A stretch of DNA of 64,000 nucleotides from Desulfurococcaceae archaeon (GTDB taxonomy: Archaea > Thermoproteota > Thermoprotei_A > Sulfolobales > Desulfurococcaceae): assembly GCA_038816475.1 (NCBI GenBank), contig JAWBAI010000005.1, positions 1 to 64,000 of the forward strand, read 5' to 3'. This document shows positions 5,851 through 10,893 of this stretch, in pieces. Below the pieces are notes generated by a model. The model did not search any database. It was given only the letters and a program-made list of their open reading frames with translations, and had not been told where the DNA came from. How positions within the stretch are numbered: the stretch's first letter is position 1; each line of letters begins with the position of its first letter. Made by a program: the position numbers and the translations under genes.

Positions 5851-6849
5851 TTGAAGTGCATTATTCTTGCGCATGGAGATAGTGATGGAGTAGCTTCAGC
5901 ATCCTTGGTTAAGGCGTACTTCGATAATTTGAATTATAGTGTTGAGGTTGTTTTCACACATCCAGCTGGTCTACTGAGTGATTTGAAGGAGTTCGTGAAA
6001 GACCATGAAGTAGTGTTCATTGTCGATGTAGCACTTAATGAACTGCACGCTACGGAAATACTAAATAACCTTAGTACTCTCGCTAATAGAGCTAAAGTAG
6101 TGTACGTGGATCATCATCCACTACCAGAGGACCTCAGACTAACCTTGAACGTAGATGTTGTTTACGATACGTGCTGCTCAGCATCTGAACTCACTTACAG
6201 GTACTTGCACAAAATGGGTCTCGGATCCGATTACGCGAGAATTGCGTTGTACGGTGCTATTGGTGATTACCTCGATGAAACACCATGGGTTAAGCAAGAG
6301 CTTGACAACTGGGATAAAAGGTCAGTGTACCTGGAAGCTGGAATTCTAATACAGGGATTGGAGTGTGCTAGAAGAGATTACGAGTTTAAACGACGCGTTG
6401 TAGAGCATCTCTCTAAAAACAACTTGCCGAGCACGATGACTGAACTCGTTGAAAGAAGCCTTAAGCAGGCTGCTGAAGACGAGAAGCTACGTTTATGGGT
6501 CAAGGAGAACGTTGTAAGTCGCGGCTTAGTAGCCTATGTTCTAAACCCATCGGGTAGCGTGGGTAGAGCTGCAAACTACGCTAGAGTCTACGGAAGAGCG
6601 AAGGTCGGCATTGCCATAGAAGAGCGGAAGGAAATGTACGTTATGAGCTTACGCTCAGAACCCGGCATAGACTTAAACAGAGTACTCAGAATTCTCAGTA
6701 GGGAGCTAGGCGTAAACGGAGGCGGACACCCTCGCGCAGCTGGCGCACGCGTGAAAAAAGAGCTGTTTGAGAGGTTCCTGTCGGAACTGGAAAGACTTGT
6801 TGCGAGCTCGGGATCATCGTTGTCTTCGAAGGTGCACTCTACCTCTTGA
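5851..6849 (+). CDS. DHH/DHHA1 family phosphoesterase (RecJ/NrnA-like)
   Basis: HGDSDG, YVDHH, GAIGD and C-terminal GGGHPRAAGA motifs. Confidence 0.9.
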   Translation: MKCIILAHGDSDGVASASLVKAYFDNLNYSVEVVFTHPAGLLSDLKEFVKDHEVVFIVDVALNELHATEILNNLSTLANRAKVVYVDHHPLPEDLRLTLNVDVVYDTCCSASELTYRYLHKMGLGSDYARIALYGAIGDYLDETPWVKQELDNWDKRSVYLEAGILIQGLECARRDYEFKRRVVEHLSKNNLPSTMTELVERSLKQAAEDEKLRLWVKENVVSRGLVAYVLNPSGSVGRAANYARVYGRAKVGIAIEERKEMYVMSLRSEPGIDLNRVLRILSRELGVNGGGHPRAAGARVKKELFERFLSELERLVASSGSSLSSKVHSTS

Positions 6850-7435
6850 TCTTCGATATGAAGTACTGGTATATCTTCTTGTCACCTGTTATTTCGGGGT
6901 GAAATGTTAGAGCTAGCATGTTGTTCTGCTCGGCTACAGCACCAACTCTTCCAACTGCTGGATGATCTACGTAGCCCGTTATTCTTGCAGGTGTCCATGC
7001 GTCAACTATACCTGGTGCTCTGATGAAAGCGGCTTTCACTATCCCCACGTTCTCCACTTCTACATCAGCTATGAAGGAGTTTCTTTGCCTGCCGAATATG
7101 TTCCTAACAATACTAATGTTCATGACCTTGAGCGTGTACTGACCCGTTTCACCGACAACTCTGTCAACGACTTTTCGTGCCAGTAGTATTGCACCAGCGC
7201 ATGTTCCCATAACGGGCAAACCGTTCTCTATGTGCTTAACCAGGTGATCGCCGAGACCTATAATTGCAAGTAGTGATCCAATAGTTGTTGATTCACCACC
7301 TGGTATTATCAGAGCGCTTACTGCGGAGAGGTCTTCGGGTTTCTTCACCGTCTTGGTTTCCACTCCTAGTTCTCTCAGGATCTCCAAGTGCTCCAGGAAA
7401 TCCCCCTGTAAAGCGAGAACCCCCACTACGACCAT
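6839..7435 (-). CDS. pdxT: Pyridoxal 5'-phosphate synthase, glutaminase subunit
   Basis: GVLALQGDF, PGGEST, GTCAG, FIRAP and FHPE motifs. Confidence 0.97.
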   Translation of the reverse strand: MVVVGVLALQGDFLEHLEILRELGVETKTVKKPEDLSAVSALIIPGGESTTIGSLLAIIGLGDHLVKHIENGLPVMGTCAGAILLARKVVDRVVGETGQYTLKVMNISIVRNIFGRQRNSFIADVEVENVGIVKAAFIRAPGIVDAWTPARITGYVDHPAVGRVGAVAEQNNMLALTFHPEITGDKKIYQYFISKIKR

Positions 7436-7437
7436 TC

Positions 7438-8469
7438 CTACTCGCCTCTAACCTGCATTAACTGCTCGGGTTTCAGCGTTCTGATGTCAATGCCGAGCAT
7501 AGAGTACTTCTCGGAGACCATTTTCTGGGCTTCGACAACCGTTTCGGGATCATCGTAGAATGATGTAGCTAGTACTATGGCTCTTGCTCTGCTCTCCGGG
7601 TCCTGGCTCTTGAATATGCCGGAGCCGACGAACACACCGTCTGAACCAAGCCACATCATTAGTGCTGCATCAGCGGGTGTTGCAATACCACCAGCAGCGA
7701 AGTTAACCACCGGTAGTCTCCCCAGCTTAGCTGTTAGTAGTGCAAGCTCGTAGGGTACCTTGTTCTCCTTTGAGTAGAACCATATAGCTTCGTAGTCACG
7801 AGCTAAGAAGTACCCTCTCAGTGTAGCTATGTCTCTGTTGACGAGCTTCATGTGTTTTACAGCTTCAGCAACGTTGCCTGTGCCCGGTTCACCCTTCGTT
7901 CTGATCATTGAAGCACCCTCGTAGACTCTCCTGAGGGCCTCCGGCAGGTTTCTAGCACCGTTGACGAAGGGTGTTTTGAAATCCCACTTGTTAATGTGGT
8001 TTTTCTCGTCAACGGGGGTTAGAACCTCGCTTTCGTCTATCAGGTCCACGCCTATTTCCTCAAGCAGTTTCGCTTCCTCGGCGTGCCCAATTCTGCACTT
8101 AGCTGAGACGGGTATTGTTATTGTGTTCATTACGCTTACTATGACGTTTAGATCGGCTGTCCTGGCAACTCCACCAGCCATTCTTACATCGTAAGGTAGC
8201 TTATCCAAAACCATTACACCAACAGCACCAGCATCCTCGGCGATCTCAGCTTGCTTCTCGTTTGTAACATCCATTATAACTCCTCCCTTGAACATGGATA
8301 TGAAGCCGTAGCGTACCAATGGTGTTGCTTCACGTATGGGTACAATCTCTAACCCGCTCTCCTCGACTCTATCCCTGTACTCTAGAAGCGAATATATGAG
8401 GTCTCTGAGCTTTTCAAGATAAACATAGGCGTCTACAAGCTTCAACTTAAAACCCCGAGGTAAGCTCAC
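7438..8469 (-). CDS. pdxS: Pyridoxal 5'-phosphate synthase, lyase subunit (start may be TTG at 8445)
   Basis: [41 protein letters not shown] and [11 protein letters not shown] motifs. Confidence 0.97.
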
Positions 8470-8480
8470 GCAAGCAGACT

Positions 8481-8505
8481 CATATAAAACTTATTGAACG
8501 TTCAA
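8481..8505 (-). promoter_or_regulatory. Putative pdxS promoter: TATA box plus an upstream 12-bp palindrome
   Basis: Minus-strand TTTTATATG at 8481-8489; perfect palindrome TTGAACGTTCAA at 8494-8505. Confidence 0.55.
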
Positions 8506-8511
8506 CAGAGA

Positions 8512-9639
8512 CTAGCAGAGCTTGTAGAGTTTAATCTTGCGTACACCCCTTGTTCTAACCTCGAAGCACAATTCCCCGCTGAGCTCCATGCTCTTAACAG
8601 CCTTGTACACCGCCCTAAGAGTGTACACAGGTTTCTCCTTCCATATCTCGTACGCTGTTACCAGGGGTTTTCTGGAGACGATGTCTAGTACAAGTTTCTT
8701 CACACTGCTTTCTCTACCCGTGGTTCGCGCCTTGTAACCCATGGTAACAACAGCTACCGAGTTTCCTGTGACCTCCGCTACGTAGTAGCTCAAAGCGGCG
8801 AGGGGCTTTATCTTGAATCCTTTCCTCAGAAGTTTCACGTAAGCTTCGTAGAGCTCAGCTTCTGAGACCTCGATGACCTTGACTCCTCTCAAGCACCTGA
8901 GTATCCTTGGATTAAAACCCTTCGGCGTAGCAGCTGTGACTTGAAAGTCTGTTTCTATTCCAGCTTCGTTCAAATCATCTACTCCCTTGTAGATCGACAG
9001 AGCTAGAACACCGCTTTTCGCTGGAACAACCACGTTTTCGGCTTTAACACCCTGTTCGTAGAGCTCGAAGACGATCGTCTTCAGTCCTTCAACGGTTAAA
9101 GGGTTTTCATAGTGTATGATCGTTGAACTTTTCGGGAACTCGTGAACGATCTTTAACCCTTTACTAGCAAAGAGCATGATATCCTCTGGGTCTATTTCGA
9201 AGACGCTACCTGCTACTACGTGTAGACTTACACCGGTTAGGTAGTGAACAAGGGATTTCGTAAACTCCTCGGAGTACTCAACGTAAACCTCTCCGACTCC
9301 GGTATCTCTGAGGAAGGACGAGATCAGTGCTGATGCTCTATCACTGTAAAGCCCTGTGGGATTGAACTTCTCGTTTTTAACTAGTACTCCTTCAACACGA
9401 CTTACAGGTGTTAAACCCTCACCAAGTGTTACTCTATTCTTGAAGAACGGTAGCAGAGAGTACCTCCACACACCTCGCTCGTTCTTTTTTACCTTGTAAA
9501 CGGGTTTACGGTACTTGACTAACAAAAGACCTCCGCACCTGGGGCATCTGCCGGTGAGAAGCAAGTTCACCTGGTTTTCATCGTGGACCTCGTACCAGCA
9601 CTGAGAGCACTTCAGGTAGGTTTCGCTGGCTAAGACCAC
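8512..9639 (-). CDS. Degenerate threonine-synthase-like (PLP fold-type II) protein with an N-terminal Zn ribbon and C-terminal winged helix
   Basis: CSQC..CPRC, GVWRY, TLGEGLTP, EGLKTIVFEL; NPTGLYSDR in place of canonical NPTGSFKDR; C-terminal ~65 aa wHTH-like segment (TAYEIW...TLRAVYKAVKSMELSG...KIKLYKL). Confidence 0.85.
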   Translation of the reverse strand: MVLASETYLKCSQCWYEVHDENQVNLLLTGRCPRCGGLLLVKYRKPVYKVKKNERGVWRYSLLPFFKNRVTLGEGLTPVSRVEGVLVKNEKFNPTGLYSDRASALISSFLRDTGVGEVYVEYSEEFTKSLVHYLTGVSLHVVAGSVFEIDPEDIMLFASKGLKIVHEFPKSSTIIHYENPLTVEGLKTIVFELYEQGVKAENVVVPAKSGVLALSIYKGVDDLNEAGIETDFQVTAATPKGFNPRILRCLRGVKVIEVSEAELYEAYVKLLRKGFKIKPLAALSYYVAEVTGNSVAVVTMGYKARTTGRESSVKKLVLDIVSRKPLVTAYEIWKEKPVYTLRAVYKAVKSMELSGELCFEVRTRGVRKIKLYKLC

Positions 9640-9654
9640 GTGGCATAGTCACCT

Positions 9655-10893
9655 CTAGGTGTGCATTTTCGCTAAGCCCATGTTCCGCTCCCCGGGTCCT
9701 ATGTGTCCTACACTTGTTTGAACAATAACCGTCTTTAAGCCCTGTTCTTCGAGTACTCTTTTAACCTCGAGCATCTCTTTGACCGTGGGTCTCCGGATCC
9801 ATCTTCTCCTGAAGGTGGGAAAGTAGTCTAGTAATGTAACCTGGATCCTAGGGTCCACAGACGCTATTCTTCTACCAGCTTCAGCGAGCTCGTTCAGAGT
9901 AACAAGGTCTTTGTTGTACACCAGGCCAACTCCAAGGTACACTCTATCTCCATAGTGCGTGTGTATGTACTCAACAGCTCTCCAAGCTGTTTCAAGGTAC
10001 TCGCGAGCCAGCTCCCTGTCCTTAATCCCGGTTATCTCCATGTACGTTTCAACCCTAGCACACTTTGGTTCAACACCTATGTTGTTGCAACCTGCTTCCA
10101 CGAGCTCGTCCACGTAGTCTGGTGTTAGAACTGTTCCATTGCTGTCCAAGTGCAGTCTTGTTCCAGGTTTTACCAGCCTTGCAGCAGTCTTGAAGAACTC
10201 GATAAGCCATCGTCTATTGATGGATGGTTCACCACCGCTAACAGCAATACCTTTCGTTCTGTACCTTTTGTGGCACGCTACTACGAGACGTGCTGCTTCA
10301 TTTGGTCTTGATGGTGGTGTTGTGTTATCGTATGTTACGTGGTAATTTTGGCACTGAGGACATCTAAGGTTACAACCAGCTGTCCATATGGCTGCTTCAA
10401 CGTAGCTCACGTAGTCTACTTCCCACCACGGAGTAGCTTTACCACCCACGGTGTGAGGCTCAGGCCCATGGATTATTCTTAAAGGTGCTAAGCCTTCTGT
10501 GCTTGTTTCAATGTTCATACCCTCCTTGACCGGGGTTATGCATGAGCGCTCGAGAGAACCATTGATCACCAATGCGCACGCCCAACAACCACCAGTTCTA
10601 CACGCTAAGCTACTACTCCTTGAACCAGGCTTATCGAACTTGAAACCAAGGTACTCTAGCGCTGTAGCTACACTAACCCCGAGAGGAGCGAGAACCTTAC
10701 TTCCATCAACGTAGATCTCCACGAGGCGTGGTTGAGCTTCAACCTCGATAATCCTTCTAGCCTCGTAGGGGCATGCCCAGAAGCATGAGAGACAGCCGAT
10801 GCATATGCTTTTGGAGTAGCACGCGTTAATAAGAGTGCAGAAACCACAGTTTTTGCACTTGTTCCAGTCAACGACAACCCTATGATACTTCAA
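9655..10893 (-). CDS. Radical SAM protein (PflA-like) with N-terminal 4Fe-4S ferredoxin and 2Fe-2S domains
   Basis: CKNCGFC..CIGCLSCFWACP; CRTGGCWAC...SC; radical SAM motif CNLRCPQC; SGGEP; DSNG. Confidence 0.88.
   Translation of the reverse strand: MKYHRVVVDWNKCKNCGFCTLINACYSKSICIGCLSCFWACPYEARRIIEVEAQPRLVEIYVDGSKVLAPLGVSVATALEYLGFKFDKPGSRSSSLACRTGGCWACALVINGSLERSCITPVKEGMNIETSTEGLAPLRIIHGPEPHTVGGKATPWWEVDYVSYVEAAIWTAGCNLRCPQCQNYHVTYDNTTPPSRPNEAARLVVACHKRYRTKGIAVSGGEPSINRRWLIEFFKTAARLVKPGTRLHLDSNGTVLTPDYVDELVEAGCNNIGVEPKCARVETYMEITGIKDRELAREYLETAWRAVEYIHTHYGDRVYLGVGLVYNKDLVTLNELAEAGRRIASVDPRIQVTLLDYFPTFRRRWIRRPTVKEMLEVKRVLEEQGLKTVIVQTSVGHIGPGERNMGLAKMHT

Follow-up and report, generated by a model that had tools for sequence, protein, structure and literature searches.

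A lysine-less threonine-synthase-like protein with a winged helix as a candidate regulator of vitamin B6 genes in Thermoproteota

In Bacteria, the pyridoxal 5'-phosphate (PLP) synthase genes pdxST and genes for vitamin B6 salvage and transport are controlled by one-component regulators of the PdxR/MocR type, in which the fold of a PLP enzyme serves as the sensor. MocR proteins bind PLP at a lysine. Archaea possess an enzyme-derived thiamine regulator, ThiR, and to our knowledge the control of vitamin B6 synthesis in Archaea is not known. The archaeal riboflavin regulator RbkR joins a biosynthetic-enzyme domain to a winged helix and has a regulon of both synthesis and transporter genes (PMC5397151). 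Here we describe a locus in a 64,000-nucleotide stretch of DNA from a Desulfurococcaceae archaeon (assembly GCA_038816475.1, contig JAWBAI010000005.1, positions 1 to 64,000; the whole of this stretch is called the window below), in which a gene for a 375-aa protein lies upstream of pdxS and pdxT. This protein, here named TW, combines a zinc ribbon, a threonine-synthase-like domain that has no Schiff-base lysine, and a winged helix. We propose, with a probability of about 0.72, that in Thermoproteota TW controls a vitamin B6 regulon as a one-component transcription factor, a reading that appears strongly supported by comparative genomics. The genes and sites on which the argument turns are as follows.

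8512-9639, minus strand: TW gene (375 aa; zinc-ribbon, Lys-less threonine-synthase-like, winged-helix protein), candidate B6 regulator
8494-8505, no strand assigned: candidate operator, the perfect palindrome TTGAACGTTCAA, starting 6 nt past the TW stop codon
8482-8489, minus strand: TATA-like box TTTTATAT, a putative promoter element 4 nt downstream of the palindrome (spacer TAAG)
7438-8445, minus strand: pdxS, PLP synthase lyase subunit, with its likely start at TTG 8445 and its longest open reading frame from GTG 8469
6839-7435, minus strand: pdxT, PLP synthase glutaminase subunit (PF01174, 5.4e-51; TIGR03800, 2.8e-53)

The identity of pdxS was given by PF01680 (2e-91) and by NF003215 (453 bits against a cut-off of 395). 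Because PdxS orthologues begin M-K-L-V-D, which corresponds to TTG 8445 in the window with GGGG just before it, the start of pdxS was moved to this codon; the real pdxS product is probably 335 aa long and preceded by a short leader, and the gap between TW and pdxS would then be 66 bp. The original prediction, made from the letters alone, was right in placing the two genes on the same strand, but its gap of 42 bp requires the start at GTG 8469. It had also asked for a test of co-localisation with pdxST across Thermoproteota, and linkage was borne out by one scan of 185,579 species genomes, which returned 80 loci, 67 of them with a TW match above 150 bits. When genes within 4 kb of TW were counted, pdxS was found in 36 of the 67 loci and pdxT in 37, and the next commonest neighbour family in 8. 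Two gene orders occur, TW-pdxS-pdxT in the window and six further loci (L005, L007, L009, L032, L036, L042) and pdxS-pdxT-TW in about 30 loci, so that the linkage has outlasted a rearrangement, which speaks for a functional connection. Among the proteins encoded at these loci, TW alone is both recurrent and of the DNA-binding type.

The palindrome lies within 8470-8511, the interval that had been proposed for an electrophoretic mobility shift assay, and in the window it starts 60 nt before TTG 8445. The window's genome, an assembly of 1.15 Mb in 18 contigs that is 92% complete, contains TTGAACGTTCAA exactly once, at pdxS, and does not contain the reversed control; a one-mismatch copy (C4:18896) inside the coding sequence of the succinyl-CoA synthetase beta-subunit (sucC) was treated as chance. 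Among related loci that hold the 5' region of pdxS, the palindrome was present with at most two mismatches in 35 of 35 (17 exact, 13 with one mismatch, 5 with two), starting 48-65 nt before the predicted pdxS start codon, against a chance expectation of about 0.4% of loci (110 positions, equal base frequencies). A frequency matrix of 38 sites showed that the core GAACGTTC is kept in 35-38 of them, that the flanks widen the symmetry to about 16 bp, T(A/G)TTGAACGTTCAA(T/C)A, and that a T-rich TATA-like element follows at a fixed offset, the eighth position after the core being T in 37 of the 38. The site ends about 7 nt before the TATA-like element and leaves the TATA box and the start site uncovered. 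The palindrome holds across lineages whose TW proteins are only 34-45% identical, and its invariant core parallels the near-invariant residues L341, R342, Y345 and K346 of the putative recognition helix.

Where TW lies away from pdxST, the palindrome is often found 44-67 nt before a transporter gene, and this placement is seen in genomes that have TW and gave no pdxS match. The loci concerned, together with one in which the palindrome precedes TW, are listed here.

L006, L010, L097, L101: PF07155 S component of an energy-coupling factor (ECF) transporter, followed by the ECF ATPase and T components
L045, L048: carrier of the major facilitator superfamily (MFS)
L091, L092, L093: SBP_bac_1/8/11 binding protein divergent from a 555-aa fused double permease, with the palindrome between the two genes
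L094, L096: AA_permease
L059: TW itself, preceded by the palindrome

PdxU and PdxU2/HmpT belong to PF07155, and the PLP-binding protein P5PA to PF13531 (SBP_bac_11); the source describes these as the sole three B6 transporters characterised in prokaryotes (PMC9997740). Transporters of the PdxU type (PF07155) are also among the targets of PdxR regulons (PMC9997740, PMC5320631). The same 2023 survey of PLP metabolism states that the B6 transporters of most prokaryotes are unidentified (PMC9997740). The operator-marked ECF, ATP-binding cassette (ABC), APC-type and MFS carriers are put forward as candidate B6 transporters, and the locus supplies a concrete candidate regulator, a candidate operator of 12-16 bp and a transporter shortlist picked by that operator.

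The distribution of TW and of the palindrome was compared in 301 genomes of the window's class, with the tables cross-tabulated by hand. TW was called at E<=1e-55, the next matches (E>=1e-44) being other ThrC-like proteins, and was present in 84 of the genomes, 57 with pdxS and 27 without a PF01680 match. The exact palindrome occurs in 46 of the 301 genomes, 35 of the 84 with TW and 11 of the 217 without it, ratios that give a direction and no P value, since the sampled genomes are related and the cross-tabulation therefore overstates their independence. The reversed control pattern was found in 16 of the 301, and the rate of the palindrome in genomes without TW is close to this control rate. 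The 35 exact sites in TW-bearing genomes include 8 just downstream of TW and 13 about 1.7 kb upstream (order pdxS-pdxT-TW), so that 21 fall at the TW-pdxST locus, and 1 before TW; the remaining 13 lie before pdxS (3), before transporters (7), before an M20 peptidase gene (1) or without an evident target (2). Seven of the 11 sites in genomes without TW were inspected, and 5 were inside coding sequences, 1 was intergenic without a B6 link and 1 was before pdxS. In the genus g26, 9 of 9 genomes carry TW and 0 of 9 carry pdxS (PF01680), two of these genomes being single-contig and 99% complete, and three have the exact palindrome at an ABC transporter; these organisms are probably auxotrophic for B6 and take it up through a regulated system. 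A conserved candidate operator thus lies before pathway genes as well as transporter genes and co-occurs with TW, the pattern expected of a ligand-responsive transcription factor of a vitamin regulon.

A different role could be read from the same loci, namely that TW is a PLP-handling accessory (a carrier, a buffer, or a partner of PLP synthase or of the transporters) which is co-regulated by another palindrome-binding factor. The commonest order, pdxS-pdxT-TW, would fit this in that it puts TW at the end of the cluster like a structural gene, and winged helices can mediate protein contacts. We consider this role quite improbable, as these loci hold no other recurrent protein of the DNA-binding type, the palindrome tracks the presence of TW, TW persists in genomes that have no pdxS, and conservation within its C-terminal domain is highest in the putative recognition helix.

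The domains of the protein that would act at these sites are the following.

9526-9615, minus strand: N-terminal four-cysteine zinc ribbon (C11, C14, C32, C35), from cysteine conservation
8731-9477, minus strand: threonine-synthase-like (fold-type II) putative sensor domain, residues ~55-303, from PF00291, Foldseek and the conserved pocket
9337-9363, minus strand: NPTGLYSDR, residues 93-101, in which the Schiff-base lysine is replaced (Ser99), from the translated reading frame and the alignment
8515-8712, minus strand: C-terminal winged helix-turn-helix, residues 310-375, from DSSP topology and Foldseek

TW matched Pfam PALP (PF00291) with 49.4 bits, above the cut-off of 35, and fell far below the cut-offs of the NCBIfam threonine-synthase models, of which NF004170 was the best (106 bits against 421), followed by NF006205 (72.5 against 358) and TIGR00260 (15.6 against 167). 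An AlphaFold2 model built with 57 family members had a mean predicted local distance difference test score (pLDDT) of 92.3, with weak stretches at residues 1-4 and in the linker 304-309, and its best matches in the PDB by Foldseek were threonine synthases (2c2b, 6nmx, 2zsj, 1uin; E ~1e-13), the threonine-synthase matches coming from Arabidopsis, Bacillus, Aquifex, Thermus and Mycobacterium. In the zinc ribbon, C32 and C35 are invariant in the TW family and C11 and C14 are at least 90% conserved, and the same four cysteines are conserved in lysine-bearing archaeal threonine synthases; the ribbon also resembles that of RpoP/Rpo12 (PDB 36rp_P, E 7.8e-5).

To define the family, close relatives were searched over 5.8 billion proteins clustered at 90% identity. 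About 75 clusters of close TW relatives scored 185-796 bits, after which the scores fell abruptly, ordinary threonine synthases reaching 82 bits or less. The lysine is absent from 73 of 73 close clusters in which the motif was found (it was not found in 2 of the 75), and these share the form NPTG(S/T/L)Y(A/S/T/V/I/G)DR. An exhaustive HMMER search of 1.84 billion representatives gave 34 clusters (50% identity) at E<=1e-30. By source names the family belongs to Desulfurococcaceae, Thermosphaera, Ignisphaera, Acidilobaceae and Sulfolobales metagenome-assembled genomes (MAGs), to which the genome scan added Pyrodictiaceae, Fervidicoccaceae, Methanomethylicia, Conexivisphaera and Nitrososphaeria-labelled MAGs. 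FastTree, run on the ThrC-like domain and rooted at the midpoint, placed TW in a clade of its own.

A column-by-column alignment of 27 TW representatives with 62 lysine-bearing relatives showed that the Schiff-base column holds K in 62 of 62 lysine-bearing threonine synthases and never in the 27 TW proteins (A, M, S and others). Much of the scaffold is kept in TW, with EG-TP, K-E--NPTG, DR, Y133, EG-KT, E192, P206, G210 and T299. The phenylalanine at position 98 is changed to a conserved tyrosine (Y98), the Gly-Asn of the S-x-G-N motif is replaced by Glu-Asp (Asp in 25 of 27), a conserved Lys at position 153 is replaced by Glu or Asp and a Glu at position 278 by Lys or Arg, the phosphate-loop Gly is Glu in 18 of 27, and one segment is deleted. 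Near the substrate site, TW has also lost, for example, the Arg/Asn/Ser region before EG-KT and Gln238. The putative contacts of these residues with PLP follow those in threonine-synthase structures. The original prediction had recognised a kept ThrC scaffold without the Schiff-base lysine, in agreement with the PALP match, with the model nearest to threonine synthases and with the family-wide absence of the residue; it had called the STGN and glycine-rich regions degenerate, and the strings it gave are indeed present (YSEEFT, residues 122-127; VPAKSG, residues 205-210), but the term does not hold, the replaced positions being conserved in the family. Because the replacement residues are themselves conserved, the pocket of TW looks remodelled rather than eroded. 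As the window's genome encodes two further ThrC paralogues, both with the lysine (NPGGSFKDR and NPTGSFKDR), it does not need TW for the enzyme activity.

These data bear on two further explanations. The first is that TW is a functionless, decaying paralogue of threonine synthase whose neighbourhood is coincidental, for which the lost catalytic lysine and the low scores against every threonine-synthase model could be cited. The reading frames are intact, however, 38 columns are invariant, the replacement residues are conserved, the model has a pLDDT of 92, and members occur in Desulfurococcaceae, Ignisphaera, Acidilobaceae, Pyrodictiaceae, Methanomethylicia and Nitrososphaeria-labelled MAGs. 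Decay is therefore already contradicted by the conservation data, and we find it barely credible. The second is that TW regulates these genes but has as its ligand an amino acid, a phospho-amino acid or an adduct of PLP with an amino acid, so that B6 supply would be coupled to amino-acid metabolism. The original prediction had named a phospho-amino acid as an alternative to a B6 vitamer. Threonine synthase, from which the sensor derives, acts on O-phosphohomoserine, and the PLP-contacting motifs of TW are heavily altered. On the other side, the predicted regulon holds only B6 synthesis genes and candidate B6 uptake genes, the sole other near-match in the window's genome is the one-mismatch copy inside sucC, and vitamin regulators, as far as we know them, as a rule sense the end product. 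Amino-acid sensing thus seems unlikely to us. Because the substrate-site positions that are conserved in lysine-bearing threonine synthases are lost as well, a phospho-amino acid is the less likely ligand, and a B6 vitamer would be the likelier one.

The C-terminal domain was assigned by fold, because sequence searches gave only sub-threshold matches. By Pfam, PadR matched 24 of 49 members, TrmB 23 of 49 and FUR 13 of 49, all below threshold; the best of these was a PadR match of 1.3e-4 in one member, the window's TW gave only HTH_13 (E 0.14), and a profile search against PDB sequences reached at best E 0.025. DSSP assigned three helices followed by a beta-hairpin (H-H-H-E-E) to residues 310-375, and with the domain alone (pLDDT 89.9) Foldseek returned winged-helix domains only, at TM-scores of 0.7-0.8, among them the PadR family, TFE, Fur/PerR/Zur, MecI, HxlR and Z-alpha. 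The winged helix-turn-helix that had been predicted for the C-terminus is thus confirmed at the level of the fold. In the putative recognition helix (residues ~341-353), L341 and Y345 do not vary, and R342 and K346 are kept in at least 90% of members. A predicted complex of two TW copies scored 0.31 against a mark of 0.42, which counts neither way on dimerisation. The wing hairpin (window 8515-8568) contains two cysteines, C358 and, at or close to the C-terminal end, C375, whose conservation in the family is at least 90%; they may form a disulfide, metal or redox site.

The mechanism that we propose builds on the domain architecture, the family-wide loss of the lysine, the gene linkage, and a palindrome that is conserved in position and accompanies TW. 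The ancestor would have been a zinc-ribbon threonine synthase of Archaea; it would have lost the Schiff-base lysine and other catalytic positions while keeping the fold as a ligand-sensing domain, and would have acquired the C-terminal winged helix. We infer that TW, probably as a dimer, binds T(A/G)TTGAACGTTCAA(T/C)AA next to the B recognition element (BRE)/TATA region of its target promoters, which would be pdxS-pdxT in PLP-making genomes and B6-uptake candidates (PdxU/HmpT-type ECF, ABC, APC, MFS) in those that make no PLP. PLP or another B6 vitamer would sit in the former active-site cleft without a Schiff base, and binding of this end product would alter DNA binding such that an ample supply of B6 lowers synthesis or uptake. 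With respect to the sign of regulation, an activator released by PLP and a repressor that needs PLP are equally likely. Bacterial PdxR activates pdxST, and a site that touches the BRE could equally block TFB. The sites of RbkR, which have a similar geometry, lie 1-12 nt upstream of promoter elements and were interpreted as sites of activation, which the effector turns off (PMC5397151).

Several findings weigh against this proposal. The support for DNA binding by TW is correlative, coming as it does from comparisons of sequences. The changes in the pocket go beyond the lysine, with Gly-Asn turned into Glu-Asp, the loop Gly mostly into Glu and a segment deleted, and PLP binding therefore cannot be assumed. 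About 30 of the 67 TW loci have no adjoining pdxST, and in many of these the palindrome is absent near TW (L053, L054, L056, L063-L067, L070, L075; Acidilobus/Hestiella-type). One genome of this type has a one-mismatch palindrome before pdxS elsewhere (L086), and in another (L085) the sole near-match has no clear target. The exact palindrome is absent from 49 of the 84 TW-bearing genomes, many of which probably carry sites with one or two mismatches, and one genome without TW (G277, 88% complete), whose congeners carry TW, has a site before pdxS (L110). Finally, 96 of the 153 pdxS-bearing genomes, for example those of family f4, have no TW; TW is therefore no general requirement, and other lineages must control pdxS differently. 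The relatedness of the genomes, given above with the counts, belongs with these points.

Other features of the window and of the related loci are recorded here. The four genes on the minus strand of the window stand in the order radical-SAM gene, TW, pdxS, pdxT.

9655-10893, minus strand: radical-SAM gene, first of the four

Its 412-aa product has 2Fe-2S and 4Fe-4S ferredoxin-like N-terminal domains and is nearest, at a low score, to models of anaerobic ribonucleotide reductase (RNR) activases. The gene ends 15 bp 5' of the TW start and may be co-transcribed with TW; outside the window it adjoins TW only in the closest relative (L004), and for this reason it was dropped as a component of the system. 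A DHH/DHHA1 phosphoesterase gene (5851-6849, plus strand) is convergent with pdxT, and the 3' ends of the two share 11 bp. In Acidilobus-type loci (L053, L056, L063, L064, L066, L075), a 363-aa protein with about nine transmembrane segments, which gave no Pfam match, is encoded on the same strand upstream of TW, and a ThermoDBP-RP (PF10015) gene lies downstream of TW in L053, L054, L056, L063, L064, L067, L070 and L075 (L054, L067 and L070 being Hestiella-type). Some genomes contain the complete TW-pdxS module twice, once in either gene order (G154 and G220; L005 and L046 come from the same MAG), and their two TW proteins are only about 40% identical; such double modules could be true duplications or mixed bins. 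In L028 (7241-8347), L052 (7478-8776) and L057 (8385-9464), a second ThrC-like gene (359-432 aa) either converges on TW or is no more than about 1.4 kb away. PdxS proteins scored about 294-327 bits against PF01680 in genomes with TW and mostly about 313-344 bits in genomes without it, which suggests that TW-linked PdxS is a distinct subgroup.

Compared with threonine synthase, TW shares the zinc ribbon and fold of the archaeal zinc-ribbon type of ThrC (NF006205 / NF005035 / NF004170) and the scaffold motifs EG-TP, K-E--NPTG, DR, EG-KT and the P--G loop. It differs from ThrC in having neither the Schiff-base lysine nor the Gly-Asn of S-x-G-N, in its deleted segment and added winged helix, and in scores far below the model cut-offs. 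TW is thus a fold-type II protein that fails as a threonine synthase (EC 4.2.3.1) on both lysine and model scores, and it fails as a MocR protein on fold and on the position of the winged helix. Its nearest relatives are a large archaeal group of lysine-less ThrC-like proteins of 420-490 aa with a C-terminal PadR/HTH_5-type domain, which have the same three-part architecture. This group (P0157-P0263) has R, I, L, V, T or M in place of the lysine, and its helix motif (H/T)(G/A)YEIWK is homologous to that of TW; unlike TW, the group keeps most of the remaining active-site motifs (the Gly-Asn, the Gly-rich loop and TG-G-K), and the two form separate branches in the domain tree. Among 135 relatives aligned, 73 are without the lysine, and 65 of these 73 have a winged-helix-like tail by a crude pattern; the window's genome has no member of the group. 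The NF004170 / PRK05638 "threonine synthase" model has 442 positions, and to judge from this length it would match the 420-490-aa group, for which the name is probably wrong. Lysine-less winged-helix proteins are thus probably misannotated systematically, as threonine synthase or as PLP-dependent enzyme.

RbkR resembles TW in architecture and regulon, and its operator, like the candidate operator described here, lies a few nt upstream of promoter elements; it differs in that it keeps kinase activity, while TW has no catalytic lysine, and the vitamin, the enzyme fold and the operator are different as well (PMC5397151). PdxR/MocR proteins couple a fold-type I, aminotransferase-like domain to an N-terminal GntR-type domain, and TW couples fold-type II to a C-terminal, PadR/TrmB-like winged helix; Pfam found neither GntR nor Aminotran_1_2, the hallmarks of MocR, in TW. 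In the literature, leaving aside the supplementary tables of PMC5320631, PMC9997740 and PMC5397151, neither the TW family nor the 420-490-aa group was found described as regulators, nor was the palindrome. We lean towards the view that TW founds an unrecognised class of archaeal one-component regulators on a lysine-less fold-type II scaffold, with the 420-490-aa group as a sister class, that its regulon gives a first genomic handle on archaeal B6 transporters (ECF PdxU-like, AfuABC/P5PA-like ABC, APC-type, MFS), and that whole genera of hyperthermophiles are B6 auxotrophs that keep the regulator. MocR is stated to be "not present in Archaea" (Suvorova & Rodionov 2016, PMC5320631). TW and MocR would be of independent origin and their similarity therefore convergent, so that the parallel with MocR/PdxR drawn in the original prediction stands. 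Overall, these comparisons support the placement of TW among the enzyme-derived vitamin-sensing transcription factors, a kind already known; Bacteria made a B6 sensor from a fold-type I PLP enzyme, and these archaea would have made theirs from fold-type II.

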